Source of the DNA: an uncultured Solirubrobacterales bacterium
GTDB taxonomy: Bacteria > Actinomycetota > Thermoleophilia > Solirubrobacterales > JBBDJG01
NCBI GenBank assembly: GCA_963774075.1
Contig: CAVZDP010000009.1
Location: forward strand, 171,103-235,102
Length of the DNA: 64,000 nucleotides
Direction of reading: 5' to 3'
Part shown: positions 3,303 through 52,370 of the stretch, piece by piece
Position numbering within the stretch: position 1 is the first letter of the stretch
How the letters are laid out: every line of letters begins with the position of its first letter
Made by a program: the position numbers and the translations under genes
Notes under the pieces: generated by a model
What the model saw: only the letters and a program-made list of their open reading frames with translations
Databases searched by the model: none
What the model was told of the DNA's origin: nothing

Positions 3303-4901
3303 TTACTGGGTCTGGGCCTGGTCCTGCTCCTGTTCGCGCTCGCGCAGCTCGATGCGACGGATCTTGCCCGTGAGCGTCTTCGGGAGATCGTCGACGAACT
3401 CGACCCGCCGCGGGTAGGCGTAGGCCGAGTGGCGCTCGCGCACGAAGCGCTTGATCTCGTCGGCCAGCTCGGGCGACGGCTCGTGCCCCTGGGCGAGTAC
3501 CAGGAACGCCTTGACGACGTTGCCGCGCCGCTCGTCCGGTGAGGCGACCGCCGCCGCCTCCCGTACCGCCGGGTGCTCGATGCAGGCGGACTCGACCTCG
3601 AACGGCCCGATCCGGTAGCCGGCAGAGATGATGACGTCGTCGGCGCGACCGGCATACCAGAAGTAGCCATCCTCGTCCTGCTCGGCCGCGTCCTTGGTGT
3701 GGAACCACTCGCCGCCGAACGTCTCCTCGGACTCCTCGGGCCGGTTCCAGTAACCGATCGGATAGTGAGGGTTCGAGCGCGCCCGCAGACAGATCTCACC
3801 TCGCTCCCCCTGCTGAACGGGCTGCTCGTCCTCGTCGAGGATCCTCACGTCCCAGCCCGGCATCGGCCTTCCCATGGACCCCTCGCGCACTTCCATGAAC
3901 GGAAAGTTCGCGCACAGCGGATAGGACTCGGTCAGGCCGTAGAAGTCGAGCACCGTGAGCCCGTACTGCTCGCGGAACCAGCGAATCGCCTCGGGGTTCA
4001 GCGGCTCGCCGGCCGAGCAGACGATGCGGAACCGTTGCGGGTAGCGCTTCCCCGCGTCCTCGATCCCCATCATCGCGCGCATGGCCGTCGGCGTGGTGAA
4101 CACGTTCGTGACTCCGTGCTTCGAGAGGACCGCGAGCTGCTGCTCGGGATCGAAGCCGCCCTCCCGCTGGAAGACGAACTGAGTTGCGCCGAGCCGCCAC
4201 GGGCCGAGCAACGGCGCGATGCCCGCGGCCCAGGCCCATTCTCCCATCCCGTGAAATAGCTCCCCGTCGCGCACGTCGTGGCAATAGACGAACTCCTCGT
4301 GGGCCAGGATGTAACGGTGGGCGTGGAGGATGCCTTTCGCCAGGCCGGTCGTGCCGGATGAGTAGTAGAGCTGCGCGGGATCGTCGGCTGCGGTGTCGAG
4401 TGCCTCGAACCGGCTCGACGCATCGGCGAGCAGCTCGTCGTCGAGGATGAGGATCTGCTCGACGAGGTCGGGCTCGATGCGGTCGGCGTTCTCGGAGTCT
4501 GTGATCAGAACCTTCGCCTGTGAGTCCTGTATTCGATGTCGAATTCCCTCGTCTCCGTACAGGACCGACATCGAGAGCAGGATCGCGCCGAGCTTCCAGG
4601 TGCCGATGAACGCGGCCGCCGTCTCTGGCGTCGCGGGGAGGAGCATCGCCACGCGGTCTCCTCGCTCGACCCCGTGCTCGCGCAACACGTTCGCGAACTT
4701 CGCCGCCAGGTCCTGCAGCTCGCCCCAGCTCACATCGCGTCGATCGCCGCGCCAGTTCTCCCAGATCATCGCGAGCTTGTCGCGGGGGTGCTTGTCGCAG
4801 ACGTCGACCGCGATGTTGTAGCGCTCGGGAACCTCCCAGCGGTGCCGGGCACAGAGCTCGTCGTAGGTGCGTGGAACCGAAGCGGGAGTCCGGAGAGACA
4901 T
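3303..4901 (-). CDS. AMP-forming acyl-CoA synthetase / AMP-dependent ligase
   Basis: AMP-binding signature YSSGTTGLAKG, later GEICL and a C-terminal PKTLTGKIRR. The ORF is open to 5000, but the first 33 codons are atypical. M34 (MSLRTPAS, ATG at 4901) is the more likely start. Confidence 0.85.
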   Translation of the reverse strand: MSLRTPASVPRTYDELCARHRWEVPERYNIAVDVCDKHPRDKLAMIWENWRGDRRDVSWGELQDLAAKFANVLREHGVERGDRVAMLLPATPETAAAFIGTWKLGAILLSMSVLYGDEGIRHRIQDSQAKVLITDSENADRIEPDLVEQILILDDELLADASSRFEALDTAADDPAQLYYSSGTTGLAKGILHAHRYILAHEEFVYCHDVRDGELFHGMGEWAWAAGIAPLLGPWRLGATQFVFQREGGFDPEQQLAVLSKHGVTNVFTTPTAMRAMMGIEDAGKRYPQRFRIVCSAGEPLNPEAIRWFREQYGLTVLDFYGLTESYPLCANFPFMEVREGSMGRPMPGWDVRILDEDEQPVQQGERGEICLRARSNPHYPIGYWNRPEESEETFGGEWFHTKDAAEQDEDGYFWYAGRADDVIISAGYRIGPFEVESACIEHPAVREAAAVASPDERRGNVVKAFLVLAQGHEPSPELADEIKRFVRERHSAYAYPRRVEFVDDLPKTLTGKIRRIELREREQEQDQAQTQ

Positions 4902-5000
4902 GGCCGTCGAGCCTACTCGACCGGCGTCGAAATCCCGTGAAACGGCCACCAGTCCCCGTCCGCCAGGTGAAAACAACAGTGAAACGGCCGGCCTCGCCAT

Positions 5001-5027: not shown

Positions 5028-5385
5028 TTACTTGACAGCACCTTGGCAAACGAGGGCCTTTTCTTCACGGCATCTTGATATCCGAGTGAGTAGTGTCGCC
5101 GCCAAGGCAGGGTAGCCAGCCAAGGCCGCGGACGGCCTGAGCAGTCGAAGAACGGATCAGGGTGGAAGCGCTCACTGTTTACAGGGCGCAGCAGCAACAG
5201 GGGATAGGGGTGGATGTTCCGGGCCCCGGGCGGACCATTAGCTACGTGGCCGCGAACGTTGCCGGGTGCGTGGCAACGATCCCGACTCCTACCAACTGCC
5301 AGCCGTGCTTCAACGGCCGAGCGGTTCGGCAAGTGAAACCGGACATCGTGATCGCAGGAGCGTCTCGGCCGTGCAAGGAGGAAGG

Positions 5386-8300
5386 GTGAGAAAAGCGGGA
5401 ACTGCAAGCGGCTATAGGCGGCTCGTGTCGTGGCTTGGCGCTTCAGCCCTGCTGGTGGCGCTCATCTTGATCGCGACTGTGCCGGCCGCGGCAACACCGA
5501 GCTCCTGCGCCGCGATAGGCCTCGAGACCATCCAAACGGACAAGGCGGACTACGCCCCCGAGGAGACCGTGCACATGACCGGGACCGGCTACGCGCCGGC
5601 CTGCGACGTCGTGGTGCAGGTCACTCGCCCGAACGGGTCGATCGTGAAGGGCGATGGAAGCTTCGAGCCCGGCAGCGACACCGCCACCACCGACGGTGAC
5701 GGGAACCTCGTCTATGACTACATCCTCAACGGCATCCAGGGTGAATACGGCGTAGAAGTGCAGGGCGCCGACGGCAGCGTCCTGGCGACGACCAGCTTCA
5801 GCGACTCCGTGAGCGTCGTCTTGGAAGGCGGCGGAGACTGGAGTGCGACCGGAAGTACTTGCGCCACTCCCAACGACGCGATCTCGGACAACAACGTCCG
5901 AGCGTTGTGCGACTTCGGCGAGACCGTCGTCGGGCGAGATTTCGGCCTCCAGGCACAAGTACCTTCGTCTGCAACGGACATCAGTTTCGTTGCGATCGTC
6001 CGCGGGCGCGTGAGCAATGCCGACGACAACGACATCTTCGACGTCAGCCTCTCGCATGACGGCGGCACCAATTACACCTCTCCGGTCGTCGCCACCGACG
6101 CAGTAAACAACGTGATCCCCGCGGGAGCCGACCAAAACGTCGAGGCTCCGGCCGCCGGTACTACCGCCGCCTGTGCGGCCGGGAGCAACTTCGGGCGCAC
6201 CTGGACCTATTCGGAGCTCTCCGACGCGAACTTCCGGCTAAGGGTCGCTGCACACCCCAAGACCGTCGCGGGCACCGACGCGCTTCTCCAGCAGATGGAC
6301 ATCGACGACATCGACCTGGTCGTGTGCTACGCGGGGAGGTTCATCACCGCCGCTTCCGTCAGCGGGCCGCAGGCGAACAACCCTGGAACCCGGGACGTGT
6401 CGCTAACCGTCAATCACACCCTCGCTAACGGTTTCAGCGCAGCGACGGCCGACGATTGGGGCTCGACGGAGTACGAGATCGAGGGCCAAGGGTCGATCTG
6501 TTCCACCGTCCCGAATCCGGACGAGACCGGCAGCACCACCGACACTCACTCCATCCCCGTCGAGGCCCCGCTCGCGGCCGGTACCTACGACGTGACGATG
6601 CGGGCGTTCCGTGACGGAGCGTGCTCTCTGGGGGCGAGCGACCCGTGGGTGATCACGGACGGCATCACGGTCGATTCCAGCTTGCCGACCCTGCACAGGT
6701 CCTCCGAGAGTCAGACCTCCGCGACGTTCTCTCACGCTGTCTCCAGCGGCGGCGACCGTCTGCTCCTGGTGGCCGTGATGATCGACAGCATCGAGGACGC
6801 CACGTCCGTGACCTACGGCGGCGTGCCCCTCACGCACGAGTTCACACAGGCGGCCGGCGGTGGCACCAGCGATGGTCAAAGAGTTGAGATCTGGCGCCTC
6901 ACGAGTCCGCCGGTTGGAACCGCCAACGTCGTGGTCAACTTCGCGACCGCAGTCGCTTACAAGGGCGTCGCGGCGGCCAACTACACAGGTGTCGACCAGA
7001 GCGATCCAATCGGGGCCACCGGAGGGTCCCTCAGCGGCAGTGTCACTCTCACCACTACACAGAACGGGTCGACCATCTTCGGAGCGGTGTCGGCTGGCGG
7101 AGAGAATTCCGCCCCATTTACGACGACAAGCCCCGTTACGGAACTCTGGGACGCTGTCACCGGTGGCGGGAGCAATCAGGAGAGCACTGACGCCGGCCTG
7201 TGGGGCGGCCAGCGAGCGGCTCCATTCGCGGGTAGCAACACGATTGGCACAACGCACACGGGCCTCGCCGGCACAGATCTCGCCATCGCGGCTGTCGAGA
7301 TCAAGGCGCTCCAGACCGGCACGATCGTGATCACCAAGGACACGATCCCCGACGGCCCCCAGGACTTCACCTACACCGATGACATCGGCAACGGCTGCAC
7401 GATCGGCCCGCTCGACGACGACGCCGACAACACCAACCCCGCCAGCCAGACCTGCAACAACGTCACGCCCGGCCCCTACACGGTGACCGAGGACGACCCC
7501 ACGCCCGGCTTCGACCTCACCGACCTCGACTGCACCGACCCCGACAGCGGCACCACGACCTCGACCGCCAGCCGCCAGGCCTCGATCGACCTCGACCCGG
7601 GCGAGACCGTCAGCTGCACGTTCGAGAACACCGAGCGCGGCACGATCGTGATCACCAAGGACACGATCCCCGACGGCCCCCAGGACTTCACCTACACCGA
7701 TGACATCGGCAACGGCTGCACGATCGGCCCGCTCGACGACGACGCCGACAACACCAACCCCGCCAGCCAGACCTGCAACAACGTCACGCCCGGCCCCTAC
7801 ACGGTGACCGAGGACGACCCCACGCCCGGCTTCGACCTCACCGACCTCGACTGCACCGACCCCGACAGCGGCACCACGACCTCGACCGCCAGCCGCCAGG
7901 CCTCGATCGACCTCGACCCGGGCGAGACCGTCAGCTGCACGTTCGAGAACACCGAGCGCGGCACGATCGTGATCACCAAGGACACGATCCCCGACGGCCC
8001 CCAGGACTTCACCTACACCGATGACATCGGCAACGGCTGCACGATCGGCCCGCTCGACGACGACGCCGACAACACCAACCCCGCCAGCCAGACCTGCAAC
8101 AACGTCACGCCCGGCCCCTACACGGTGACCGAGGACGACCCCACGCCCGGCTTCGACCTCACCGACCTCGACTGCACCGACCCCGACAGCGGCACCACGA
8201 CCTCGACCGCCAGCCGCCAGGCCTCGATCGACCTCGACCCGGGCGAGACCGTCAGCTGCACGTTCGAGAACACCGAGCGCGGCACGATCGTGATCACCAA

Positions 8301-11280
8301 GGACACGATCCCCGACGGCCCCCAGGACTTCACCTACACCGATGACATCGGCAACGGCTGCACGATCGGCCCGCTCGACGACGACGCCGACAACACCAAC
8401 CCCGCCAGCCAGACCTGCAACAACGTCACGCCCGGCCCCTACACGGTGACCGAGGACGACCCCACGCCCGGCTTCGACCTCACCGACCTCGACTGCACCG
8501 ACCCCGACAGCGGCACCACGACCTCGACCGCCAGCCGCCAGGCCTCGATCGACCTCGACCCGGGCGAGACCGTCAGCTGCACGTTCGAGAACACCGAGCG
8601 CGGCACGATCGTGATCACCAAGGACACGATCCCCGACGGCCCCCAGGACTTCACCTACACCGATGACATCGGCAACGGCTGCACGATCGGCCCGCTCGAC
8701 GACGACGCCGACAACACCAACCCCGCCAGCCAGACCTGCAACAACGTCACGCCCGGCCCCTACACGGTGACCGAGGACGACCCCACGCCCGGCTTCGACC
8801 TCACCGACCTCGACTGCACCGACCCCGACAGCGGCACCACGACCTCGACCGCCAGCCGCCAGGCCTCGATCGACCTCGACCCGGGCGAGACCGTCAGCTG
8901 CACGTTCGAGAACACCGAGCGCGGCACGATCGTGATCACCAAGGACACGATCCCCGACGGCCCCCAGGACTTCACCTACACCGATGACATCGGCAACGGC
9001 TGCACGATCGGCCCGCTCGACGACGACGCCGACAACACCAACCCCGCCAGCCAGACCTGCAACAACGTCACGCCCGGCCCCTACACGGTGACCGAGGACG
9101 ACCCCACGCCCGGCTTCGACCTCACCGACCTCGACTGCACCGACCCCGACAGCGGCACCACGACCTCGACCGCCAGCCGCCAGGCCTCGATCGACCTCGA
9201 CCCGGGCGAGACCGTCAGCTGCACGTTCGAGAACACCGAGCGCGGCACGATCGTGATCACCAAGGACACGATCCCCGACGGCCCCCAGGACTTCACCTAC
9301 ACCGATGACATCGGCAACGGCTGCACGATCGGCCCGCTCGACGACGACGCCGACAACACCAACCCCGCCAGCCAGACCTGCAACAACGTCACGCCCGGCC
9401 CCTACACGGTGACCGAGGACGACCCCACGCCCGGCTTCGACCTCACCGACCTCGACTGCACCGACCCCGACAGCGGCACCACGACCTCGACCGCCAGCCG
9501 CCAGGCCTCGATCGACCTCGACCCGGGCGAGACCGTCAGCTGCACGTTCGAGAACACCGAGCGCGGCACGATCGTGATCGACAAGGACGCCGTACCAGAT
9601 GACCCGCAGGACTTCTCGTTCACGGGCGATTCGCCGATCGGCTCCTTCACGCTCGACGACGACGCCGACGGCACCAACCCGTCCTCGCGAAGCTTCCAGA
9701 TTCCGCCGGCGACCTACGACGTCACGGAAGGTGCGCTGGCGGGTTGGCTGCCTCCGAACATCAACTGCGCCGACCCGGACAGCGGGACGACGACAGACGT
9801 CCCCAACCGCACGGCCTCGATCGACCTCGACCCGGGCGAGACCGTGAGCTGCACGTTCACGAACGTGAAGGACACCGACGAGGACGGGATTCCGAACGTG
9901 GTCGACTGCACGCCGACTCTCGCCGACGACCATGTCGTCGACCCGGGCAACGTCGTCCCGGGAAGCTTCACGGGTAGCCGTCACAACACGCTCCAGGCGG
10001 CGGTCAACGCGGCGGCCGACAACCAGCTGATCAGCATGTACGCCAACACCACCGAGAACGTGGTCATCGGCGCGACTACCGGCTCCGGCAACAAGGACCT
10101 CCGCATCGAGGGCTGCGGCCACAAGGTGACGGCAGCCGATCCCTCCAAGCCGGCAATTCAGGCCGAGTCCTCGGCGGGCGCCGACGACGGCAACACCGGC
10201 AAGGGTGAGCGAGACATCCACATCGGCGACCTCGACGTGCGTGGATCGAGCTCGTCCTCCGGTTACCTGATCCAGACGAGCAAGGCCTCGTCCGGCACGT
10301 CGACCCTGCTGAAGGCAGTGCGATCCGAGAGCAACTCGATCGGAATCAAAATCGCCGGCCACGGAAACCACGTCCGCGGCTCCAACGGCGTCAAGCTCAA
10401 CTCCGGCGACGGCATTCAGGTGATCGGAAACAGCAACCTGATCGAGGAGAACCGCGTCGACGAGAACGGTGGCGACGGCATCGACGTCACCGGTAACTCA
10501 AACACGATCAAGAAGAGCAAGCTCGAGACCAACAACGCCGGAGACGGGATCAAGGTCGCTGGAAACTCGAACTCGCTGCCCGAGAACGACGTGTTCGACA
10601 GTGGCAGTGACGGCATCGACGTCACCGGGAACCTCAACGCGCTCACGAAGAACGACGTCGGCGACGCAGGCAAGGGCAACGGCGGAGATGGCATCAAGAT
10701 CACGGGCGACGGGAACCTGCTCGGCACGGCCGTGGCCGAGAACAGCATCTTCGCGAACACGGGCAGCGGTCTCGTCGTCAACGGAAACATGAACGCGCTC
10801 GTTAAGAACGTCGCGGGTGACCACAACAAGGGCAACGGCGGCGACGGCTTCCGCGTCAGCGGCTACGGCAATACGCTCACCGAGAACAAGGCGTGGGCGA
10901 ATGGCGGCGACGGTGTCGAGGTCAGCGGTGGCACCTCCGCCAAGCCGAACCGGCTGCTGAAGAACGTCGCGGGCGACTCGAACAAGGGCAACGGCGGCAA
11001 CGGATTCCTGCTCTCCGGCATCGGCAACGGCAACTCGGTCCCGATCGAGCTAGAGCAGAACACGGCCAAGAAGAACACGCTCGACGGCATCCGGGTCAAC
11101 GGCACGGGCTGGCAGCTCAAGAACAACATCAGCGGCGGCTCCGCCAGCGAGGACAACGGCGACTGCGAGTTCAGAGTCATCGCCGGCAACTTCAACGCCA
11201 CAGGCAACAAGGCGAACAACACGACGATCGCGGGTGCCAGCGGGAGCGCCTTCCCGACCGGATGCAGGGGGACGCCGTAA
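5386..11280 (+). CDS. Giant secreted surface protein 1 (signal peptide, unique N-terminal region, 7+1 Ig/prealbumin-like 107-aa repeats, C-terminal parallel beta-helix PbH1-type repeats)
   Basis: The ORF is open from 5266. In-frame GTG at 5386 follows AAGGAGGAAG and yields a signal-like N-terminus (LGASALLVALILIATVPAAA). Repeats end in the ETVSCTFENTE motif typical of prealbumin/SpaA-like folds. The C-terminus is a run of NxxGDGIxVxGNxN units typical of right-handed beta-helix proteins. Confidence 0.85.
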   Translation: MRKAGTASGYRRLVSWLGASALLVALILIATVPAAATPSSCAAIGLETIQTDKADYAPEETVHMTGTGYAPACDVVVQVTRPNGSIVKGDGSFEPGSDTATTDGDGNLVYDYILNGIQGEYGVEVQGADGSVLATTSFSDSVSVVLEGGGDWSATGSTCATPNDAISDNNVRALCDFGETVVGRDFGLQAQVPSSATDISFVAIVRGRVSNADDNDIFDVSLSHDGGTNYTSPVVATDAVNNVIPAGADQNVEAPAAGTTAACAAGSNFGRTWTYSELSDANFRLRVAAHPKTVAGTDALLQQMDIDDIDLVVCYAGRFITAASVSGPQANNPGTRDVSLTVNHTLANGFSAATADDWGSTEYEIEGQGSICSTVPNPDETGSTTDTHSIPVEAPLAAGTYDVTMRAFRDGACSLGASDPWVITDGITVDSSLPTLHRSSESQTSATFSHAVSSGGDRLLLVAVMIDSIEDATSVTYGGVPLTHEFTQAAGGGTSDGQRVEIWRLTSPPVGTANVVVNFATAVAYKGVAAANYTGVDQSDPIGATGGSLSGSVTLTTTQNGSTIFGAVSAGGENSAPFTTTSPVTELWDAVTGGGSNQESTDAGLWGGQRAAPFAGSNTIGTTHTGLAGTDLAIAAVEIKALQTGTIVITKDTIPDGPQDFTYTDDIGNGCTIGPLDDDADNTNPASQTCNNVTPGPYTVTEDDPTPGFDLTDLDCTDPDSGTTTSTASRQASIDLDPGETVSCTFENTERGTIVITKDTIPDGPQDFTYTDDIGNGCTIGPLDDDADNTNPASQTCNNVTPGPYTVTEDDPTPGFDLTDLDCTDPDSGTTTSTASRQASIDLDPGETVSCTFENTERGTIVITKDTIPDGPQDFTYTDDIGNGCTIGPLDDDADNTNPASQTCNNVTPGPYTVTEDDPTPGFDLTDLDCTDPDSGTTTSTASRQASIDLDPGETVSCTFENTERGTIVITKDTIPDGPQDFTYTDDIGNGCTIGPLDDDADNTNPASQTCNNVTPGPYTVTEDDPTPGFDLTDLDCTDPDSGTTTSTASRQASIDLDPGETVSCTFENTERGTIVITKDTIPDGPQDFTYTDDIGNGCTIGPLDDDADNTNPASQTCNNVTPGPYTVTEDDPTPGFDLTDLDCTDPDSGTTTSTASRQASIDLDPGETVSCTFENTERGTIVITKDTIPDGPQDFTYTDDIGNGCTIGPLDDDADNTNPASQTCNNVTPGPYTVTEDDPTPGFDLTDLDCTDPDSGTTTSTASRQASIDLDPGETVSCTFENTERGTIVITKDTIPDGPQDFTYTDDIGNGCTIGPLDDDADNTNPASQTCNNVTPGPYTVTEDDPTPGFDLTDLDCTDPDSGTTTSTASRQASIDLDPGETVSCTFENTERGTIVIDKDAVPDDPQDFSFTGDSPIGSFTLDDDADGTNPSSRSFQIPPATYDVTEGALAGWLPPNINCADPDSGTTTDVPNRTASIDLDPGETVSCTFTNVKDTDEDGIPNVVDCTPTLADDHVVDPGNVVPGSFTGSRHNTLQAAVNAAADNQLISMYANTTENVVIGATTGSGNKDLRIEGCGHKVTAADPSKPAIQAESSAGADDGNTGKGERDIHIGDLDVRGSSSSSGYLIQTSKASSGTSTLLKAVRSESNSIGIKIAGHGNHVRGSNGVKLNSGDGIQVIGNSNLIEENRVDENGGDGIDVTGNSNTIKKSKLETNNAGDGIKVAGNSNSLPENDVFDSGSDGIDVTGNLNALTKNDVGDAGKGNGGDGIKITGDGNLLGTAVAENSIFANTGSGLVVNGNMNALVKNVAGDHNKGNGGDGFRVSGYGNTLTENKAWANGGDGVEVSGGTSAKPNRLLKNVAGDSNKGNGGNGFLLSGIGNGNSVPIELEQNTAKKNTLDGIRVNGTGWQLKNNISGGSASEDNGDCEFRVIAGNFNATGNKANNTTIAGASGSAFPTGCRGTP
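7318..9564 (+). repeat. 7 x 321-bp nucleotide-identical in-frame tandem repeat (107 aa per unit), followed by a diverged 8th unit (9565-~9870)
   Basis: Units start at 7318, 7639, 7960, 8281, 8602, 8923 and 9244. The sequence text is the same in each unit. All antisense pseudo-ORFs recur with identical 71-aa translations at a 321-nt period. Confidence 0.95.
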
Positions 11281-11296
11281 GCATGAGGGGGCAACA

Positions 11297-14200
11297 ATGA
11301 CGAAGCGACTAAAACTCTTTTCGAGTCTCGTCCTCGCGACCGGCCTCTTGGCCGTGCTCGCGCCCTCACAGGCCGCAGCACACCCCGATCCCGACTGCAC
11401 CGCCCTCGGCGGCGTGATCACGCTCGCCGACGAGTGCGAGGTTCAGTCGAGCCAGACGGCCAAGGCCGGCACCTACAACATCTTCCACACGCTGATCATC
11501 AAGGCCGGCGTCCAGATCGACGCCACCACGCCCGGCACGGGCGGCATCACGATCAACATCAGTGGCGCCGGCAACGACCTGGTGATGGAGTCGGGCAGCG
11601 CGATCGAGGCAAACGACCCCTCGAGCCCCCCTAACGACAGCGCCCGCCCGATCACGATCACGGTTCCCGACGACATGACGATGATGGCCGGCAGCACGCT
11701 GGCGGAGAACAACTCTCAGGGCGGCTCGGGCGCCGACATCAGCCTGACGATCGGCGACGACTTCACGATGCAGTCGGGCTCGGAGATCTCGAGCTCGCGC
11801 AATGCCGGCACCACGACCGGCTCCGGCGGCGACATCGCGATCGACGTCGGCGGCGACATGCTGATGGAGGCCAACACCATCATCCACGCCGATGGCCAGA
11901 ACCCGGCCGCAGGCGACGTCACGATCAACGTCGACGGCGACATGACGATGAAGGGCACCGCCGGCCCGCTCGCCGGGGCCATCATCTCCGCCACGGGCAG
12001 CTTCGGCGACACCGCCGGCGACATCACGATCCACGTCGGCAACTTCCCCAACATCCCGCCCACGGGCGTCTTCACTCAGGAGACCGGCGCGGTCGTGACC
12101 GCGAGCTCGGGTGGGCCGGCTGGCGAGATCATCATCACCGCCGGCCGGGAGATGTCGGTCGACGGCTCCGTGCTCTCGGAGTCCGGTCAATCGGGCACCG
12201 GAGCCATCCAGCCGCCCGGCGGCGGCCCGATCACGCTCCAGGCGGGCTGCGGGCTCACCGTCTCCGACACCGGCCTCGTCTCCTCCAGGGGACAGGATCC
12301 GGGCGCCGACCTCGTCCACCTCGAGGCCTGCGAGGTCTTGATCCAGGGCGTCGTTCGCTCCTTCGCACCTGGCGCGGGACACGTGATCCCGACCGGCGGC
12401 AACCGCTGCAACGACGACACCACCGCCCACCCCACCAACGGCGCCGCGGGCTTCACGGGCTGCGTTGAGATCTGGGCCAAGAACGTCACGATCGACAACA
12501 CCGGCACCCACAACGGCGAGGTCCACACCGACGGCATCCGCAACCCGATGCGGGGCTGGGTCGACGTCTTCGCCCAGAAGGACGTCTCGATCCTGGGCGA
12601 CCCGACCACGCCCTACCCGACCACCTTCGACGCCAACGCCTTCGTCTACACCCCGCCCTACGCGGTGCACGCCAACGCCTGCCCGGCAAGCGACGGCCAG
12701 GCGCCCTGCTCGAACTCCTTCGGCGGCCTGATCACGGTCAAGTCGCTCGATGGCAAGGTCGCAGCCTCCGGGCGCGCCCTGCAGGCGACCGCCACCGCGC
12801 TCGGCGCAGACGGCGGTGACATCGTCGTCGAGGCGGGCGGAGCGGCTCCGGCGGGCGAGGTCGACCTCGACAGCGCGAGCCTGCAGGCGACCGGGCCCTC
12901 GGGCTCCAACACCGCCGGCGGCTCGGTCAGCGTTCGCTCCTGGGAGGACGACGTGCTCGGCGTCCCGCCGGGCGAGATCAAGGTCGCCGGCGACGGTCTC
13001 ACCGATCCCGGCACGATCACCCTCACCGCCTGCATGGACGTCAACTACACAGGCTCCACCGATCGCACCCCGACCGTCAACGAGGGTGCACCCTTCTGCG
13101 GCACTGGGCCGACGATTCCGGCCAGCGTGCTCTCCAACTTTGCGCTCCGCGCAGCGCTCTGGGACGCCTGCGACCCCCAGGAGGGAGTGAAGAAGGGCCA
13201 GAAGTTCAACGACCTCGACGGTGACGGCGTCAAGGACGCTGGCGAGCCGGGCCTACCGAACTGGACCATCCACATCTTCGGCACCACCAACGACAACGTG
13301 GTCGTCCACGAGGACATCCTCACCGACGCCAACGGCAACTACGAGATCACCCTTCCCCCCGGCACCTACACCGCCTGCGAGGAGCTTCAGACGGGCTGGG
13401 TGCAGACCTTCCCGAACCCCGGAAGCGACGGCAACGCCTGCGAGGGCCACAACCACCTCGGCAGCCCCGGCGCTGCCGGCTACACGTTCACGATCGTCGG
13501 TGGAGATACCCACGAGGGGAACGACTTTGGGAACCGCGAGAAGCCGCTCGAGTGCCCCGAGGACCCGGGTCGGGCCTCCTCGATCACGAGGATGGTCGAC
13601 GAGGACGGCACCTCGCACGCGGTGTCGGTGCCGAACCACCTGACCGTGCAGGAGGCCTACAACGCCGCCCAGGCCAGCGGCAACCCGAACGAGGTCATCG
13701 GCATGTTCTCCGAGACGACCGAGAACGTCGTCCTCAACGGGCCGAAGCGGGTGACCATCACGCAGTGCACGACCGCCAAGGTCACCGCAGCCGACAATTC
13801 GAAGCCGGTCTGGGACATCGGGCTCGGCGCCGGGCGCCTGCTGATCGTTGGCCCCGACTCCGTCGGCGGGACGATCGGCTGGAACGTCGCCGGCAACGGC
13901 CACGAGCTCAAGGGGCTGCGGGCCGAGGGCGCGAGCCAGTACGGCATTCGGGTGCTCGGCAACAACAACTCCGTCAGCTACAACTCGGTCGACACGAGCC
14001 CTGTCGGGATTCGAGTCGAGGGCGATTACACCGACCTTCGCGGCGGCACGGTCGAGAGGAACACCGGCGATGGCGTCCAGCTCGGCTCGACGGCCAACAA
14101 CAACACGTTCCGGACGGCGAACGTCCAGAGCAACGGCGGGAACGGGATCCTCGTCGAGGGCCCGACCAACACGATTCGCGACAACGGCCGGATCGACCTC

Positions 14201-14656: not shown

Positions 14657-17600
14657 ATGACGAAGCGACTAAAACTCCTTTCAAGCCTCGTCCTCGCGAC
14701 CGGCCTCTTGGCCGTGCTCGCGCCCTCACAGGCCGCAGCACACCCCGATCCCGACTGCACCGCCCTCGGCGGCGTGATCACGCTCGCCGACGAGTGCGAG
14801 GTTCAGTCGAGCCAGACGGCCAAGGCCGGCACCTACAACATCTTCCACACGCTGATCATCAAGGCCGGCGTCCAGATCGACGCCACCACGCCCGGCACGG
14901 GCGGCATCACGATCAACATCAGTGGCGCCGGCAACGACCTGGTGATGGAGTCGGGCAGCGCGATCGAGGCAAACGACCCCTCGAGCCCCCCTAACGACAG
15001 CGCCCGCCCGATCACGATCACGGTTCCCGACGACATGACGATGATGGCCGGCAGCACGCTGGCGGAGAACAACTCTCAGGGCGGCTCGGGCGCCGACATC
15101 AGCCTGACGATCGGCGACGACTTCACGATGCAGTCGGGCTCGGAGATCTCGAGCTCGCGCAATGCCGGCACCACGACCGGCTCCGGCGGCGACATCGCGA
15201 TCGACGTCGGCGGCGACATGCTGATGGAGGCCAACACCATCATCCACGCCGATGGCCAGAACCCGGCCGCAGGCGACGTCACGATCAACGTCGACGGCGA
15301 CATGACGATGAAGGGCACCGCCGGCCCGCTCGCCGGGGCCATCATCTCCGCCACGGGCAGCTTCGGCGACACCGCCGGCGACATCACGATCCACGTCGGC
15401 AACTTCCCCAACATCCCGCCCACGGGCGTCTTCACTCAGGAGACCGGCGCGGTCGTGACCGCGAGCTCGGGTGGGCCGGCTGGCGAGATCATCATCACCG
15501 CCGGCCGGGAGATGTCGGTCGACGGCTCCGTGCTCTCGGAGTCCGGTCAATCGGGCACCGGAGCCATCCAGCCGCCCGGCGGCGGCCCGATCACGCTCCA
15601 GGCGGGCTGCGGGCTCACCGTCTCCGACACCGGCCTCGTCTCCTCCAGGGGACAGGATCCGGGCGCCGACCTCGTCCACCTCGAGGCCTGCGAGGTCTTG
15701 ATCCAGGGCGTCGTTCGCTCCTTCGCACCTGGCGCGGGACACGTGATCCCGACCGGCGGCAACCGCTGCAACGACGACACCACCGCCCACCCCACCAACG
15801 GCGCCGCGGGCTTCACGGGCTGCGTTGAGATCTGGGCCAAGAACGTCACGATCGACAACACCGGCACCCACAACGGCGAGGTCCACACCGACGGCATCCG
15901 CAACCCGATGCGGGGCTGGGTCGACGTCTTCGCCCAGAAGGACGTCTCGATCCTGGGCGACCCGACCACGCCCTACCCGACCACCTTCGACGCCAACGCC
16001 TTCGTCTACACCCCGCCCTACGCGGTGCACGCCAACGCCTGCCCGGCAAGCGACGGCCAGGCGCCCTGCTCGAACTCCTTCGGCGGCCTGATCACGGTCA
16101 AGTCGCTCGATGGCAAGGTCGCAGCCTCCGGGCGCGCCCTGCAGGCGACCGCCACCGCGCTCGGCGCAGACGGCGGTGACATCGTCGTCGAGGCGGGCGG
16201 AGCGGCTCCGGCGGGCGAGGTCGACCTCGACAGCGCGAGCCTGCAGGCGACCGGGCCCTCGGGCTCCAACACCGCCGGCGGCTCGGTCAGCGTTCGCTCC
16301 TGGGAGGACGACGTGCTCGGCGTCCCGCCGGGCGAGATCAAGGTCGCCGGCGACGGTCTCACCGATCCCGGCACGATCACCCTCACCGCCTGCATGGACG
16401 TCAACTACACAGGCTCCACCGATCGCACCCCGACCGTCAACGAGGGTGCACCCTTCTGCGGCACTGGGCCGACGATTCCGGCCAGCGTGCTCTCCAACTT
16501 TGCGCTCCGCGCAGCGCTCTGGGACGCCTGCGACCCCCAGGAGGGAGTGAAGAAGGGCCAGAAGTTCAACGACCTCGACGGTGACGGCGTCAAGGACGCT
16601 GGCGAGCCGGGCCTACCGAACTGGACCATCCACATCTTCGGCACCACCAACGACAACGTGGTCGTCCACGAGGACATCCTCACCGACGCCAACGGCAACT
16701 ACGAGATCACCCTTCCCCCCGGCACCTACACCGCCTGCGAGGAGCTTCAGACGGGCTGGGTGCAGACCTTCCCGAACCCCGGAAGCGACGGCAACGCCTG
16801 CGAGGGCCACAACCACCTCGGCAGCCCCGGCGCTGCCGGCTACACGTTCACGATCGTCGGTGGAGATACCCACGAGGGGAACGACTTTGGGAACAGGAAG
16901 CTCGAGTGCGAGAAGGGCCCTGTCAAGGACGTGCTCAACCCGACGACTGGGCGCTTCCCCGGCAACGCAGGACCCGATGTGATCGTACGGATCGACCTCG
17001 GTCAGTCCGTCCAGGATGCTGTCGACAACGTCAGCGACGTCAACGGCGACCAGAAGCTCATCATCTTGGTCCTCAAGGACGGGACGGGGCAGCTCGGCGG
17101 GCACACGAGCCAGGAAGTCGTCATCGACGACGCCTACAGCCTGCCGTTCGGCCTGATCGGCTGCAGCGTGACGCTTCACGATCCGACCCCCAATGACGCC
17201 AACCCGACGATCCGCATCGCATCCTCTGCTGGAAGCCCACAGAACATCTTCCTGATGGACCTCCATGCTGCGGACAGCAAGGCCGCGGGCATCGCGGTCG
17301 AGGGCAATGGCCGCTACCTGCGTAACGAGAACGTCCTCAACAACGCGGTCGGCTTCAAGATCACCGGCAACGCCAACACCGTCCACAACGGCGCGGCGAC
17401 GGGCAACACCGGTGCCGGTGCCAACGTCCAGGGCGACAGCAACGTGCTCACGGACACCGACTCCTACTCGAACGGCGTCGGCTTCCAGGTCACGGGCAAC
17501 AACAACCAGCTCCTCAAGCTCGACGCAGGAGACAAGGGCAAGGGGAACCTCGGCGACGGCGTCAACGTCAACGGCGCCAACAACCTGTTGTCCGAGATCG

Positions 17601-18052: not shown

Positions 18053-18150
18053 TGGAGCCCTGCACTTGACAGCCAAACCCCGACAGCGAGAAGGTAGCGA
18101 TGGCAAGGTTGCACGCGAGCCGGGTCGGGCTCGCCACGTCAGGAGGACAC

Positions 18151-18180
18151 ATGTATCTCACATCCGAGCGCCTCAGGTGA
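18151..18180 (+). other. 9-codon upstream ORF (MYLTSERLR) with a strong SD; its stop overlaps the GTG start of giant gene 4
   Basis: AGGAGG at 18141-18146, ATG at 18151 in the +1 frame relative to the giant ORF. TGA at 18178-18180 overlaps GTG at 18177-18179 (GTGA). Alternatively this is another 1-nt indel and 18151 is the true start. Confidence 0.3.
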
Positions 18181-20168
18181 ATCGTTCCAAGGGTGGGAGT
18201 CGCCGCGGCCGCGGCGTCGTGACTCTCCTGGCAACGCTCGTCCTGTCGGCTGTTTTCGCAGGGTCGGCCTCGGCCGACCAGGCCGGCTGCGACCTGGGCA
18301 CCTACAACGTGATCTTTGACGAGTGCCAGATCTCCGGTCCCACGACGGCCACCGGAGTGAAGAACTTCCACCACTCGGTGCACATGCTGCCCGGCTCGAG
18401 CATCAATGCGAGCGGAGGCGGAATCACCCTCAACATCAATGGCGCCTCCGGGCTCGACTTCACGATGGACACGACCAGCTCCGTCATCGAGGCCAACGAC
18501 GATGGCCTGCCCTCGGGTGCGAGCGCGAGCCCAATCAACATCAACGCGACCGGCGACATGGAGATGCAGGCCGGCGCCAGGATCCTCGCCGAGAACGCGA
18601 ACAACGGCGGAAGCGGCGGCAACATCACGATCGACGTCGACGGCGACCTGACGATGGCCGGAGCGGTCGGGCTGGTGCCGGGCGCGATCATCTCGACTCG
18701 CAAGTCCGCTGGCGCCGGCGACACAGGCTTGGGGGGCAACATTACGATCATGGTCGGCGACTCCACGGCGGCGACCGGCACCTTCTTCATGGGCGGCGGC
18801 TCCACCACCTACGGCGCGGAGACCGGCGCGAAGCTGATCGCCACCGGCACAGGACCGGCCGGTGACATAACGGTCAACGCCGGCCGCACCTATACGACCG
18901 AGCCCGGCTCGGTCGTCGAGGCGGGGGATGGCAACGGGACCACGGTCCAGCAGGGCGGCAAGATCTTTCTCGCCTCCGGCTGCGGCCTGACGACCAAGGG
19001 CCGCGTGACCAGCAAGGGCACGGACCCGGGCGCCGACCTCGTTCACATCGAGGCCTGCGACGTCCTCATCGCCGGCCTCGTCGAGTCGACCGGCAGGGCG
19101 CACGCGACCGGGATCAGGAACAGCTGCGACAACGTGAACGACGGCCTCGCCGGGGAGGTCCTCCGGCCCGGCAAGCCGGCTGAGTCGACGGCCTGCATCG
19201 AGGTCTGGGCCAACAACGTCACCATCGACTCGACCAACGGCAACGCCGGCGAGCTGAACGCGGACATCGGCAACGGGGGGAGCGGGGGCAGATCATGGAT
19301 AGACGTCTTTGCCTTCACCGACCTGACTGTCAAGGACGGCAGCGGCAACAACCGCACCAGCAGCAACGGCGGCGGTTCCTACCTGAACACCTTCGCGGTG
19401 CACGCGAAGTCGATCGGTGGCTCTGACAACACTCCGAACACGATCACCGCCAAGGCCAAGACGGGCGTGCTGACGGTTACCGGCGACGCCTTCCAAGCGG
19501 GCTCGGACGGCAATGGCTCCAACGGCGGCTCGATCGTGCTTCAGAGCTCCGGCAACGCCACCCTGGATACCTCGCTCGAGGCGTCCTCCGGCGGCGGTGC
19601 TGCGGGCGACGGCGGCTCGATCGCGGTCAGGTCGTTCAACGGCAACATCAGCTGGCAGAACGGCGAGGGCGACGTCACTGGGAGCCCAAACGGGACGATC
19701 TCGCTGACCTCCTGCGGCACGGTCAACACCGCCGGGTCGAACTTCCACAGCGTGTCTGTCACGACGGCGAGTTCCTGCGGCGGCATGCCCTCGATCCCCG
19801 GGGTGAGCCCCGACTACACGAATGGTTTCTTCGACAGCGCCACGCGCTGGGACAATTGCAACGAAGAGGGAACGATCATCGTCGAGAAGCAGACCGTCCC
19901 GGACGGTGCGACGGGCAACTTCACGTTCACGGGCGACGCGGCCGGCACGATCTCCGACGGCCAGCAGATCGTCGTATCCGGGCTGACAGCCGGTACCTAC
20001 ACCTCCACGGAGGCAGACCCCTCGCCGGGTTTCGACCTCACCGACATTCAGTGCACGGACTCTGACAACGCGGGCGTTGCGAGCTCGGGCGACACTCAGA
20101 CTCGAACGGCGACGATCAACCTCGACCCCGGCGAGACCGTCAGCTGCACGTTCGAGAACACCGAGCGC

Positions 20169-23100
20169 GGCAAGGTCGTGATCACCAAGGACACGATCCC
20201 CAACGGCCCCCAGGACTTCACCTACACCGACACCATCCCCAACGGCTGCCAGATCGGCCCCCTCGACGACGACTCCGACAACACCAACCCCAACAACACG
20301 ACCTGCCTCAACGTCACCCCCGGCACCTACAGCGTGACCGAGGACGACCCGACGCCGGGCTTCGACCTCACCGACCTCACCTGCACCGACTCTGACGCCG
20401 GCGGCACCGACTCCACGGGCTCGACCGCCACCCGCACGGCGACGATCAACCTCGACCCCGGCGAGACCGTCAGCTGCACGTTCGAGAACACCGAGCGCGG
20501 CAAGGTCGTGATCACCAAGGACACGATCCCCAACGGCCCCCAGGACTTCACCTACACCGACACCATCCCCAACGGCTGCCAGATCGGCCCCCTCGACGAC
20601 GACTCCGACAACACCAACCCCAACAACACGACCTGCCTCAACGTCACCCCCGGCACCTACAGCGTGACCGAGGACGACCCGACGCCGGGCTTCGACCTCA
20701 CCGACCTCACCTGCACCGACTCTGACGCCGGCGGCACCGACTCCACGGGCTCGACCGCCACCCGCACGGCGACGATCAACCTCGACCCCGGCGAGACCGT
20801 CAGCTGCACGTTCGAGAACACCGAGCGCGGCAAGGTCGTGATCACCAAGGACACGATCCCCAACGGCCCCCAGGACTTCACCTACACCGACACCATCCCC
20901 AACGGCTGCCAGATCGGCCCCCTCGACGACGACTCCGACAACACCAACCCCAACAACACGACCTGCCTCAACGTCACCCCCGGCACCTACAGCGTGACCG
21001 AGGACGACCCGACGCCGGGCTTCGACCTCACCGACCTCACCTGCACCGACTCTGACGCCGGCGGCACCGACTCCACGGGCTCGACCGCCACCCGCACGGC
21101 GACGATCAACCTCGACCCCGGCGAGACCGTCAGCTGCACGTTCGAGAACACCGAGCGCGGCAAGGTCGTGATCACCAAGGACACGATCCCCAACGGCCCC
21201 CAGGACTTCACCTACACCGACACCATCCCCAACGGCTGCCAGATCGGCCCCCTCGACGACGACTCCGACAACACCAACCCCAACAACACGACCTGCCTCA
21301 ACGTCACCCCCGGCACCTACAGCGTGACCGAGGACGACCCGACGCCGGGCTTCGACCTCACCGACCTCACCTGCACCGACTCTGACGCCGGCGGCACCGA
21401 CTCCACGGGCTCGACCGCCACCCGCACGGCGACGATCAACCTCGACCCCGGCGAGACCGTCAGCTGCACGTTCGAGAACACCGAGCGCGGCAAGGTCGTG
21501 ATCACCAAGGACACGATCCCCAACGGCCCCCAGGACTTCACCTACACCGACACCATCCCCAACGGCTGCCAGATCGGCCCCCTCGACGACGACTCCGACA
21601 ACACCAACCCCAACAACACGACCTGCCTCAACGTCACCCCCGGCACCTACAGCGTGACCGAGGACGACCCGACGCCGGGCTTCGACCTCACCGACCTCAC
21701 CTGCACCGACTCTGACGCCGGCGGCACCGACTCCACGGGCTCGACCGCCACCCGCACGGCGACGATCAACCTCGACCCCGGCGAGACCGTCAGCTGCACG
21801 TTCGAGAACACCGAGCGCGGCAAGGTCGTGATCACCAAGGACACGATCCCCAACGGCCCCCAGGACTTCACCTACACCGACACCATCCCCAACGGCTGCC
21901 AGATCGGCCCCCTCGACGACGACTCCGACAACACCAACCCCAACAACACGACCTGCCTCAACGTCACCCCCGGCACCTACAGCGTGACCGAGGACGACCC
22001 GACGCCGGGCTTCGACCTCACCGACCTCACCTGCACCGACTCTGACGCCGGCGGCACCGACTCCACGGGCTCGACCGCCACCCGCACGGCGACGATCAAC
22101 CTCGACCCCGGCGAGACCGTCAGCTGCACGTTCGAGAACACCGAGCGCGGCAAGGTCGTGATCACCAAGGACACGATCCCCAACGGCCCCCAGGACTTCA
22201 CCTACACCGACACCATCCCCAACGGCTGCCAGATCGGCCCCCTCGACGACGACTCCGACAACACCAACCCCAACAACACGACCTGCCTCAACGTCACCCC
22301 CGGCACCTACAGCGTGACCGAGGACGACCCGACGCCGGGCTTCGACCTCACCGACCTCACCTGCACCGACTCTGACGCCGGCGGCACCGACTCCACGGGC
22401 TCGACCGCCACCCGCACGGCGACGATCAACCTCGACCCCGGCGAGACCGTCAGCTGCACGTTCGAGAACACCGAGCGCGGCAAGGTCGTGATCACCAAGG
22501 ACACGATCCCCAACGGCCCCCAGGACTTCACCTACACCGACACCATCCCCAACGGCTGCCAGATCGGCCCCCTCGACGACGACTCCGACAACACCAACCC
22601 CAACAACACGACCTGCCTCAACGTCACCCCCGGCACCTACAGCGTGACCGAGGACGACCCGACGCCGGGCTTCGACCTCACCGACCTCACCTGCACCGAC
22701 TCTGACGCCGGCGGCACCGACTCCACGGGCTCGACCGCCACCCGCACGGCGACGATCAACCTCGACCCCGGCGAGACCGTCAGCTGCACGTTCGAGAACA
22801 CCGAGCGCGGCAAGGTCGTGATCACCAAGGACACGATCCCCAACGGCCCCCAGGACTTCACCTACACCGACACCATCCCCAACGGCTGCCAGATCGGCCC
22901 CCTCGACGACGACTCCGACAACACCAACCCCAACAACACGACCTGCCTCAACGTCACCCCCGGCACCTACAGCGTGACCGAGGACGACCCGACGCCGGGC
23001 TTCGACCTCACCGACCTCACCTGCACCGACTCTGACGCCGGCGGCACCGACTCCACGGGCTCGACCGCCACCCGCACGGCGACGATCAACCTCGACCCCG

Positions 23101-24455
23101 GCGAGACCGTCAGCTGCACGTTCGAGAACACCGAGCGCGGCAAGGTCGTGATCACCAAGGACACGATCCCCAACGGCCCCCAGGACTTCACCTACACCGA
23201 CACCATCCCCAACGGCTGCCAGATCGGCCCCCTCGACGACGACTCCGACAACACCAACCCCAACAACACGACCTGCCTCAACGTCACCCCCGGCACCTAC
23301 AGCGTGACCGAGGACGACCCGACGCCGGGCTTCGACCTCACCGACCTCACCTGCACCGACTCTGACGCCGGCGGCACCGACTCCACGGGCTCGACCGCCA
23401 CCCGCACGGCGACGATCAACCTCGACCCCGGCGAGACCGTCAGCTGCACGTTCGAGAACACCGAGCGCGGCAAGGTCGTGATCACCAAGGACACGATCCC
23501 CAACGGCCCCCAGGACTTCACCTACACCGACACCATCCCCAACGGCTGCCAGATCGGCCCCCTCGACGACGACTCCGACAACACCAACCCCAACAACACG
23601 ACCTGCCTCAACGTCACCCCCGGCACCTACAGCGTGACCGAGGACGACCCGACGCCGGGCTTCGACCTCACCGACCTCACCTGCACCGACTCTGACGCCG
23701 GCGGCACCGACTCCACGGGCTCGACCGCCACCCGCACGGCGACGATCAACCTCGACCCCGGCGAGACCGTCAGCTGCACGTTCGAGAACACCGAGCGCGG
23801 CAAGGTCGTGATCACCAAGGACACGATCCCCAACGGCCCCCAGGACTTCACCTACACCGACACCATCCCCAACGGCTGCCAGATCGGCCCCCTCGACGAC
23901 GACTCCGACAACACCAACCCCAACAACACGACCTGCCTCAACGTCACCCCCGGCACCTACAGCGTGACCGAGGACGACCCGACGCCGGGCTTCGACCTCA
24001 CCGACCTCACCTGCACCGACTCTGACGCCGGCGGCACCGACTCCACGGGCTCGACCGCCACCCGCACGGCGACGATCAACCTCGACCCCGGCGAGACCGT
24101 CAGCTGCACGTTCGAGAACACCGAGCGCGGCAAGGTCGTGATCACCAAGGACACGATCCCCAACGGCCCCCAGGACTTCACCTACACCGACACCATCCCC
24201 AACGGCTGCCAGATCGGCCCCCTCGACGACGACTCCGACAACACCAACCCCAACAACACGACCTGCCTCAACGTCACCCCCGGCACCTACAGCGTGACCG
24301 AGGACGACCCGACGCCGGGCTTCGACCTCACCGACCTCACCTGCACCGACTCTGACGCCGGCGGCACCGACTCCACGGGCTCGACCGCCACCCGCACGGC
24401 GACGATCAACCTCGACCCCGGCGAGACCGTCAGCTGCACGTTCGAGAACACCGAG
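20169..24455 (+). repeat. 13 x 330-bp nucleotide-identical in-frame tandem repeat (110 aa per unit; the last unit lacks its final codon)
   Basis: Units start at 20169 + n*330. Identical antisense 74-aa pseudo-ORFs recur at 20327...23957, plus a variant at 24287. A diverged unit 0 lies at ~19870-20168. Confidence 0.95.
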
Positions 24456-26161
24456 GACGCCACCGTCACGATCACCAAGGACGCGATCCCGGACGGTCCG
24501 CCAGGACTTCAGCTTCAGCGACCACCGGCCTCAACGGCGCCTGATCGGCCCTTCACGCTCGAGCGACGACGGCAACGAGACAAACGAGCCGGCGACTCCC
24601 GGCACCGGCGGCGACTGGCCGAAGACCAAGAAGTTCACGTTCTCCGGCTCCGACTTCGGAGCGAAGACGATCACCGGGTCGGTCCCGAGCGGCTGGACGA
24701 ACTCCGCCTACAGCTTGCTCCGAGGGCACCAAGAGTGGAACGACGACCGCGAACTTCACGGTCGACCCAGGCGACACGATCAGCGTGCAACTACGAGAAC
24801 ACCAAGGACGCCACCGTCACGATCACCAAGGACGCGATCCCGGATTCCGGCCAGGACTTCCGCTTCTCGACCACCGGCTCAGGCCTCGCGCCCTTCACGC
24901 TCGAGGACGACGGCAACGAGACAAACGAGCCGGCGACTCCCGGCACCGGCGGCGACTGGCCGAAGACCAAGAAGTTCACGTTCACTGGCTCCGACTTCGG
25001 GCGAAGACGATCACCGAGTCGTCCCGCGCGGCTGGACGAACTCCGCCTACAGTTGCTCCGAGGGCACCAAGAGTGGAACGACGACCGCGAACTTCACGGT
25101 CGACCCAGGCGACACGATCACGTGCAACTACGAGAACACCAAGGACGCCACCGTCACGATCACCAAGGACGCGATCCCGGACTCAGGCCAGGACTTCAGC
25201 TTCACGACCTCCGGCTCGGGCCTCTCGAGCTTCACGCTCGAGGACGACGGCAACGAGACAAACGAGCCGGCGACTCCCGGCACCGGCGGCGACTGGCCGA
25301 AGACCAAGAAGTTCACGTTCTCCGGCTCCGACTTCGGAGCGAAGACGATCACCGAGTCGGTCCCGAGCGGCTGGACGAACTCCGCCTACAGCTGCTCCGA
25401 GGGCACCAAGAGTGGAACGACGACCGCGAACTTCACGGTCGACCCAGGCGACACGATCACGTGCAACTACGAGAACAAGAAGAACGCGACCATCACGATC
25501 ACCAAGGACGCGATCCCGGATAGCGCGCAGAACTTCCCCTTCGGCTCTACTGGCCTCGCCCCATTCACGCTCGAGGACGACGGCAACGAGACAAACGAGC
25601 CGGCGACTCCCGGCACCGGCGGCGACTGGCCGAAGACCAAGAAGTTCACGGTCACTGGCTCCAACTACCCCTTCGGGCAGAAGACGATCACCGAGGTCGT
25701 CCCCGCAGGCTGGACGAACTCCGCCTACAGTTGCTCCGAGGGCACCAAGAGTGGAACGACGACCGCGAACTTCACGGTCGACCCAGGCGACACGATCACG
25801 TGCAACTACGAGAACACCAAGGACGCCACCGTCACGATCACCAAGGACGCGATCCCGGATTCCGGCCAGGACTTCAGCTTCTCGACCACCGGCTCAGGCC
25901 TTCGGGCCCTTCACGCTCGAGGACGACGGCAACGAGACAAACGAGCCGGCGACTCCCGGCACCGGCGGCGACTGGCCGAAGACCAAGAAGTTCACGTTCT
26001 CCGGCTCCGACTTCGGAGCGAAGACGATCACCGAGTCGGTCCCGAGCGGCTGGACGAACTCCGCCTACAGCTGCTCCGAGGGCACCAAGAGTGGAACGAC
26101 GACCGCGAACTTCACGGTCGACCCAGGCGACACGATCACGTGCAACTACGAGAACAAGAAG
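24456..26161 (+). repeat. Second repeat family R2, 5 units of ~339 bp (113 aa: DATVTITKDAIPDSGQDF...DDGNETNEPATPGTGGDWPKTKKFTF...CSEGTKSGTTTANFTVDPGDTITCNYENTK), imperfect and carrying indels
   Basis: Unit starts are 24456, 24807, 25144, 25483 and 25822. Unit lengths are 351, 337, 339, 339 and 340 bp. Confidence 0.85.
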
Positions 26162-50932: not shown

Positions 50933-51120
50933 CGGCGAAAGCAAGCTCCCCCGCACGAAGTCGCCCTGACACTTCTGGCGGATTAGGTGGCTCACGTAAG
51001 TGGCCAGTCCTAGCGCACCCCGGCTGTCGCTTGGCGCGGAGGCTGTCGCACGAAGTCCGCGCCAGGCATTAAAACGCCGCCCTGAGTTAGGCGGCGGTGA
51101 GAATCGAACGCTGGGTCTCT

Positions 51121-52284: not shown

Positions 52285-52370
52285 TGCCTGGATCGTGCAA
52301 AACGACCCGGACGCTCATTGAAAGCTCGAATGGCCCTTTCCCAGGCCTCCACGTTCTCCCGCGACACGTG

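Follow-up and report, generated by a model that had tools for sequence, protein, structure and literature searches.

Gene 1 of an uncultured Solirubrobacterales bacterium encodes a secreted multidomain protein and contains seven tandem units of 321 nucleotides (nt) that are identical at every base and that each encode one domain of the SpaA_4 family. This array is likely to be a recombination-homogenized, probably length-variable stalk of CnaB-type domains. The gene lies on contig CAVZDP010000009.1 of assembly GCA_963774075.1, in a stretch of 64,000 nt (contig positions 171,103 to 235,102) that is here called the window and to whose first letter all coordinates refer. Three of its features are needed from the outset:

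5386..11280, + strand: gene 1, the coding sequence (1964 codons) of a secreted multidomain protein (open reading frame list, translation, Shine-Dalgarno sequence, C-terminus matching homologues)
7318..9564, + strand: seven nucleotide-identical 321-nt units, one 107-residue SpaA_4 domain each (unit comparison, Tandem Repeats Finder, Pfam, fold model)
9565..9873, + strand: eighth, diverged SpaA_4 unit of 103 codons that caps the array (codon-aligned comparison)

An array of identical units

Direct comparison of the units, which start at 7318, 7639, 7960, 8281, 8602, 8923 and 9244, finds 0 mismatches, and the 321-nt periodicity is perfect over 7317-9579, i.e., seven units plus 15 nt. Tandem Repeats Finder (TRF) likewise assigns a period of 321, a copy number of 7.1 and 0% indels to 7317-9588, so that the seven identical units of the original prediction, with the same starts, are borne out. 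A chance origin of seven identical 321-mers is impossible. The unit amounts to 107 codons and the array is in frame within the open reading frame (ORF) 5266..11280 (+), which confirms the further claim that the unit length, as a multiple of 3, preserves the frame. The diverged eighth unit, also foreseen, is confirmed: only its first 15 nt are common with the repeat and an ungapped comparison yields 178 mismatches in 321 positions, whereas codon-aligned it shares 68% nucleotide and 56% amino acid identity with the repeat unit, with a ratio of nonsynonymous to synonymous divergence (dN/dS) of 0.52.

Each unit as a single SpaA_4 domain

One unit matches the Pfam family SpaA_4 (PF24514, "prealbumin-like fold domain") with 57.0 bits, the cut-off being 27.3. 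Since the match covers positions 1-106 of the 107 in the profile, the DNA repeat corresponds to exactly one protein domain. The whole gene 1 protein matches the same profile in 8 stretches with 324.6 bits (E 2.4e-98); an NCBIfam search gave no match. An AlphaFold2 (AF2) model of the unit, for which the window's own unit variants and one database fragment served as input, is all-beta with seven strands (predicted local distance difference test score, pLDDT, 76.9). Its best Foldseek matches in the PDB are CnaB2 (8bdw), GBS52, BcpA, the Mobiluncus adhesin 5u6f (query-based template modeling score, TMq, 0.65) and UafA/SdrD, with template modeling (TM) scores of 0.5-0.65; the Mobiluncus adhesin is both isopeptide- and ester-bonded.

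The residues Lys7, Glu58 and Asn104 are kept in every unit variant of the window and fall on the modeled strands 2-10, 52-58 and 97-106, which are the first strand, a central one and the last one. SpaA_4 has been listed among the CnaB-like domains with intramolecular isopeptide bonds, which have a Lys/Glu/Asn triad in that order, and disulfides have been reported to be prevalent in it (PMC12617251). The repeat unit of gene 1 has four cysteines. The triad, the strand order and the published description of the family together suggest that each domain is probably locked by an isopeptide bond between Lys7 and Asn104, with Glu58 as the catalytic residue, as well as by disulfides. At the unit junction (…FENTER/GTIVITKD…) there is almost no linker between successive domains, which is suggestive of an extended rod-like stalk, the model itself being of a single domain. 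An in-frame repeat whose every unit makes up a whole folded domain should structurally tolerate the gain or loss of units.

Architecture of the gene 1 protein

The mechanically called ORF begins at 5266; the start of gene 1 is likely to be the GTG at 5386, which directly follows an AAGGAGG Shine-Dalgarno sequence and opens onto a signal peptide. The array is flanked by the following modules:

5386..5493, + strand: signal peptide (MRKAGTASGYRRLVSWLGASALLVALILIATVPAAA/TP), read directly off the translation by its basic N-region, hydrophobic core and AAA cleavage motif
5494..5814, + strand: N-terminal tip domain of 107 residues, a beta-sandwich of the macroglobulin MG2-like kind in which a Cys pair is conserved (AF2, Foldseek)
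5815..7317, + strand: head region of ~500 residues with no recognized fold (one homologue, P0001, at 55% identity)
9874..11277, + strand: TSP3-like acidic linker (DTDEDGIPNVVDC) and C-terminal right-handed parallel beta-helix (PF13229, E 5.6e-13)

The tip domain is modeled with a pLDDT of 93.6 and is matched by Foldseek to the MG domains of alpha2-macroglobulin and C3 (TM ~0.7, E 1e-5). It recurs at 57-68% identity in actinobacterial proteins (P0002-P0009), some of which have LPLTG sortase anchors at the C-terminus, and by this distribution it appears to be a head module common to actinobacterial surface proteins. DUF5979 proteins with an LPLTG anchor (P0002, P0003, P0005) have up to 3 tandem copies of the same MG2-like module (C..TDKADYAP..TVH.TG.GY..C) at their N-terminus. 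For the head region that follows it, Pfam, NCBIfam and PDB sequences all gave no match, and a homology search of a word-indexed database, with the N-terminal 751 amino acids as query, returned P0001 (55%) as the sole true homologue of the head, all other matches covering only the 105-residue tip module.

At the other end, the beta-helix module has 88 homologues, in most of which it lies C-terminal to stalk-type domains of the SpaA_x, SdrD_B or VCBS kinds. The C-terminus of gene 1, ...SAFPTGCRGTP, aligns with these homologues through the last residue, and as the frame runs on from the array into it, gene 1 is intact across the array. In four of the beta-helix homologues (P0164, P0166, P0168, P0169) the longer pattern ...GNKANN..I.GASGSAFPT.C.GTP-COOH (11100-11277 in gene 1) is kept to the final residue. 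Such conservation may reflect an unrecognized sorting or attachment signal, or else a disulfide-capped end, and the beta-helix could itself serve as a non-covalent tether or as an effector. As regards adhesive domains, the protein has the stalk, its tip is an MG2-like sandwich of a generic sort, the head is without a match, and the beta-helix resembles carbohydrate enzymes or binding modules by family name only. The protein is probably located at the cell surface, where either of its ends may face outward.

Three repeat systems of zero divergence in one operon

Gene 1 opens a series of four genes that run in one direction at close spacing (5386-27091), and the three that follow it also carry long repeats:

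11327..13534, + strand: first copy of a perfect 2208-nt repeat, in the N-terminal two-thirds of gene 2 (11297-14629) (sequence comparison)
14687..16894, + strand: the other copy of that perfect 2208-nt repeat, within gene 3 (14657-18052) (sequence comparison)
20106..24455, + strand: sister array of 13.2 nucleotide-identical 330-nt SpaA_4 units in gene 4 (ORF from 18012) (TRF, direct comparison)
24453..26158, + strand: five imperfect ~339-nt units in gene 4, with ~9 single-base indels that break the frame (TRF, unit alignment)

Internal divergence is zero in all three of the perfect repeat systems (7x321, 13.2x330 and 2x2208 nt), which together make up ~11 kb within 20 kb. The 321-nt and 330-nt units are by comparison well separated, with 87% nucleotide and 79% amino acid identity, a dN/dS of ~1.1-1.2 and a longest common exact tract of 43 nt. 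In genes 2 and 3 (1110-1131 codons) the C-terminal thirds, which are beta-helices, diverge abruptly after the repeat and converge again in the last ~70 residues, a pattern that points to recent duplication or to gene conversion with a sharp boundary. These two genes were also considered as polymorphic-toxin-like cassettes; this was rejected, both C-termini being beta-helix paralogues with a common end and no small immunity-like genes lying between them. About 25 kb downstream of the operon are an ORF for a DUF772 transposase (50597-52621, -) and one for a phage-integrase-like protein (54019-55140, +), and the third-codon-position GC phase changes once inside the former, at ~51.9 kb.

Identical interior units next to a diverged terminal unit are the expected signature of homogenization driven by recombination. 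With seven units that match completely in their DNA, misaligned homologous recombination or replication slippage between them would add or remove whole domains without a break of the frame. The same recombination would keep the interior units identical by concerted evolution, with the terminal eighth unit escaping it. The outcome would be a population of cells that hold the end modules, the MG2-like tip and head on the one side and the parallel beta-helix on the other, at differing distances from each other, which is the principle of the "Periscope proteins".

The age of the last homogenization can be bounded by means of the mutation rate of ~6e-10 per bp per generation estimated from Drake's rule: zero differences in 2.2 kb correspond to roughly <= ~2e6 generations, and zero differences in 11 kb to roughly <= ~5e5 generations. 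Since the two SpaA_4 arrays differ at 13% of bases (synonymous divergence, dS, 0.12), the homogenization is far younger than the split between them. Continuing recombination, or else a technical cause, is more parsimonious than three coincident one-off events. Thus, of the two processes named in the original prediction, recent expansion and ongoing homogenization, the latter is strengthened by the three zero-divergence systems, while the wording "very recent" has to be loosened to a bound on the scale of ~10^6 generations.

Relatives and the recurrence of identical runs

A profile search with the unit found 8226 proteins among 1.84 billion representatives, many of them with 5-31 copies of the domain. 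Identity between adjacent domains was computed for the 150 top-scoring of these 8226 proteins. Its median in this set is 0.52; at least one pair with at least 95% identity occurs in 26 of the 150 and three or more such pairs in 14, and 8 of the 150 have three or more adjacent pairs that are 100% identical. Several of the proteins with identical runs come from contigs of 0.4-4.5 Mb, one of them from a metagenome-assembled genome (MAG) of the Acidimicrobiia. Gene 1 has no orthologue among the proteins with identical runs, and unit identity to them reaches ~60% at best. By the sequences compared, the expansion of SpaA_4 stalks into identical runs is a phenomenon that recurs independently in uncultured Actinomycetota, and unexpanded relatives with 0-2 diverged copies are also found (L081, P0168, P0169). 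Many of the public proteins with identical SpaA_4 runs (P0017, P0032, P0035, P0071, P0123, P0142) have tails that are rich in Arg, Pro and His and have the look of a wrong reading frame, which suggests that the public assemblies with these proteins are systematically prone to frameshift errors at the margins of identical-domain arrays.

Closer relatives of gene 1 itself are scarce. An exact-sequence look-up of its protein in a collection of 15 billion proteins gave no record, and a scan of a genome collection with the head region gave no relative. The acyl-CoA synthetase gene that adjoins gene 1 (3303-5000, -) has 74-85% amino acid identity to 80 loci of Solirubrobacterales and Thermoleophilia, mostly MAGs, which identifies the lineage; the unit, the head, genes 2-4 and the synteny are absent from all 80. 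The unit alone retrieved one fragment of 167 residues at 63% identity from the word-indexed database. A metagenome DNA pattern for the unit junction had 0 matches, and one for DPGETVSCTFEN had a single match, the contig L081, which holds two diverged units and no repeat at the DNA level. A background scan of 1.5 Mb of related loci with TRF brought up many imperfect long-period repeats and one perfect one. This last is in L013, a short-read Solirubrobacterales MAG, where a 585-residue protein (6606-8363) has 2.1 base-identical 324-nt repeats (7353-8034) of a different segment of ~108 residues; the array there may have been collapsed. Another Solirubrobacterales MAG, with a locus of 21.6 kb (L004), has dense imperfect tandem repeats around the acyl-CoA synthetase gene, with periods of 111-378 nt and matches of 68-86%.

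Quality of the consensus and alternative explanations

The imperfect array of gene 4 allows the consensus to be judged close to the repeats in question. Of its indels, 6 fall in the first unit, 2 in the second and 1 in the fifth, none of them in homopolymers, and the frame passes from 0 to 1 to 2. The first unit has, over its 3' 250 nt, three insertions against one substitution, and the insertion CAG[C]TTGC resembles a merge of the sister variants CAGTTGC and CAGCTGC. Outside this array the third-codon-position GC phase in the window shifts mainly at gene boundaries. The indels in 24453-26158 are hence read as probable consensus errors from mixed pile-ups of noisy long reads, and the true gene 4 probably extends over 18012-27091. 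A true pseudogene was considered for gene 4 and is less likely than consensus error, as the indels outnumber the substitutions and every frame still encodes an intact domain sequence.

These errors give substance to the most serious alternative, namely that a real near-identical array has acquired its base-perfect identity, its copy number of seven, or both, from long-read assembly and polishing, in which ambiguously placed reads give all units one majority consensus. The ~9 single-base indels with almost no substitutions in 24453-26158 are typical of mixed pile-ups and not of gene decay, and the out-of-frame-looking ends of many public proteins with identical runs speak for the same cause. 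By the acyl-CoA synthetase gene, the closest relatives include many MAGs with "MFD" isolate names, on contigs of up to 2 Mb, and the Microflora Danica project has been described as one in which MAGs are sequenced deeply with long Nanopore reads. Even the intact ORF is no proof of seven copies, since every integer copy number stays in frame. However, the error density of the imperfect array (~5 per kb) would lead one to expect ~30 errors in the 6.6 kb of perfect arrays, where 0 are seen, as is understandable if the true units are identical or nearly so, because misplaced reads are then harmless. Collapse of short reads would have yielded 1-2 copies and not 7 or 13, and gene 1 continues in frame to a C-terminus that is conserved up to its final residue. 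We therefore regard a technical origin as unlikely, and at most it would hide a few single-nucleotide polymorphisms or shift the copy number, the array itself remaining. The assembler caveat attached to the original prediction is thereby divided: polishing could indeed erase rare differences between units, given the consensus trouble 15 kb away, but collapse lowers the copy number and creates no identity. In sum, the array and its near-identity are real, whereas base-perfect identity and the number seven are known from the consensus alone.

A different objection accepts the sequence and denies the process, in that a single burst of amplification may have left a stalk that is now of fixed length and whose variability has no adaptive role. 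Zero differences in 2.2 kb require, by Drake's rule, an age of only roughly 10^6 generations or less, no variation in unit count has been observed, and a soil bacterium is not known to be under pressure from a host or its immunity. On the other hand, the three separate repeat systems of the operon would each need an independent and equally recent event, and perfect tandem repeats of 321 bp are intrinsically recombinogenic through both RecA-dependent and RecA-independent rearrangement. Further, multidomain proteins otherwise avoid having identical domains side by side (PMC8201768), as the median of 0.52 in the SpaA_4 family also illustrates, which suggests that identity is kept here for a reason. 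The one-off burst is on balance improbable. As for the strand, an antisense ORF of 1322 codons (6403..10371) covers the whole array; the original prediction had spoken of antisense pseudo-ORFs, which are indeed present, although as one long ORF rather than as separate ones. That the repeat might be coded on this strand, or be a non-coding satellite, can practically be set aside: the + strand translation matches SpaA_4 at E 2.4e-98, the + frame runs on into conserved flanking domains, and the third-codon-position GC phase tracks the + strand frame across gene 1, with a strand call that flips inside the array and is not decisive. The coding frame is by these tokens that of the + strand. With 67% GC one expects long ORFs on the antisense strand, and this one is a by-product of the high GC content.

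A recombination-homogenized stalk of probably variable length thus remains the preferred explanation, and four points weigh against it. The neighboring imperfect array has consensus errors, so that exact identity and the copy number rest on the assembly consensus. Protein, genome and metagenome searches brought up no orthologue and no second strain, and the length variation is accordingly deduced rather than observed. Inspection of the sequence at both ends of the protein revealed no LPXTG motif, transmembrane segment, lipobox or other recognized anchor. Lastly, the unit model has only moderate confidence (pLDDT 76.9), and its fold matches are weak (E >= 5e-3).

Comparison with known surface proteins

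Long runs of near-identical Ig-like extender domains are familiar from giant repeat adhesins such as MpIBP, the ice-binding adhesin of Marinomonas, and other RTX adhesins, in which they project terminal ligand-binding modules; the genes for such adhesins are notorious for mis-assembly. Gene 1 differs from these in domain family, in secretion (by a type I secretion system in the Gram-negative cases), in anchoring, and in copy number, which is far higher in the RTX adhesins. With the CnaB-type stalks of fibrillar adhesins and Gram-positive pilins (the Cna B-region, SpaA, BcpA, GBS52) it shares the SpaA_4 family, the all-beta sandwich, the order of the triad and the cysteines. However, adjacent domains are only ~50% identical in most members of the SpaA_4 family, whereas seven are identical in gene 1, and the gene 1 protein, without a pilin motif or LPXTG, is not a sortase-polymerized pilin.

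The nearest parallel is with the Periscope proteins, in which whole folded domains of very high DNA identity stand in tandem and recombination alters the number of domains and hence the projection distance (PMC8201768, PMC9704523). The usual rule is for adjacent domains to share <50% identity (PMC8201768). Examples of the class are Sgo_0707 of Streptococcus gordonii with its SHIRT repeats, Rib and Alpha C of group B streptococci, SasG/Aap, Esp and CdrA (PMC8201768, PMC9704523). Like these, gene 1 has an in-frame array of domains, of ~50-165 residues across the set, that lies in a secreted protein with a functional module at either end; identity between neighboring domains far exceeds the <50% mark, and homologous recombination is the proposed driver. 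On the other side of the ledger, its repeat is a SpaA_4/CnaB-type domain, which is not mentioned in the main text of PMC8201768, and its host is an uncultured free-living member of the Solirubrobacterales rather than a host-associated pathogen, with no wall anchor found. The class is moreover defined by length variation, whereas gene 1 is known from one assembled sequence. It can be said, by analogy, that the gene 1 protein would work like a Periscope protein, short of a claim to outright membership in the class.

Implications

Loci with identical-domain repeats are those at which long-read metagenome assemblies are least trustworthy, as the frameshifted neighboring array and the similar state of the public homologues attest. 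Because of these shared symptoms, copy number and gene integrity should not be taken from the consensus alone.

The array of gene 1 is probably one more case of a known way in which bacteria build surface proteins of changeable length. If it is both real and variable, the Periscope principle, whose descriptions so far come mainly from long-read sequencing of pathogens, would extend to an uncultured soil lineage and to the isopeptide-bonded CnaB/SpaA_4 family. Beyond this, one might tentatively picture a soil actinobacterium that runs an operon of length-variable surface proteins, with three repeat systems homogenized by ongoing recombination and with isopeptide-locked CnaB/SpaA_4 domains as the expandable unit, such that variation of the Periscope type would be a general environmental strategy. 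Were this so, the variation in length may serve to tune reach through a matrix, a capsule or the interface with soil particles, and would not be specific to the evasion of host immunity.

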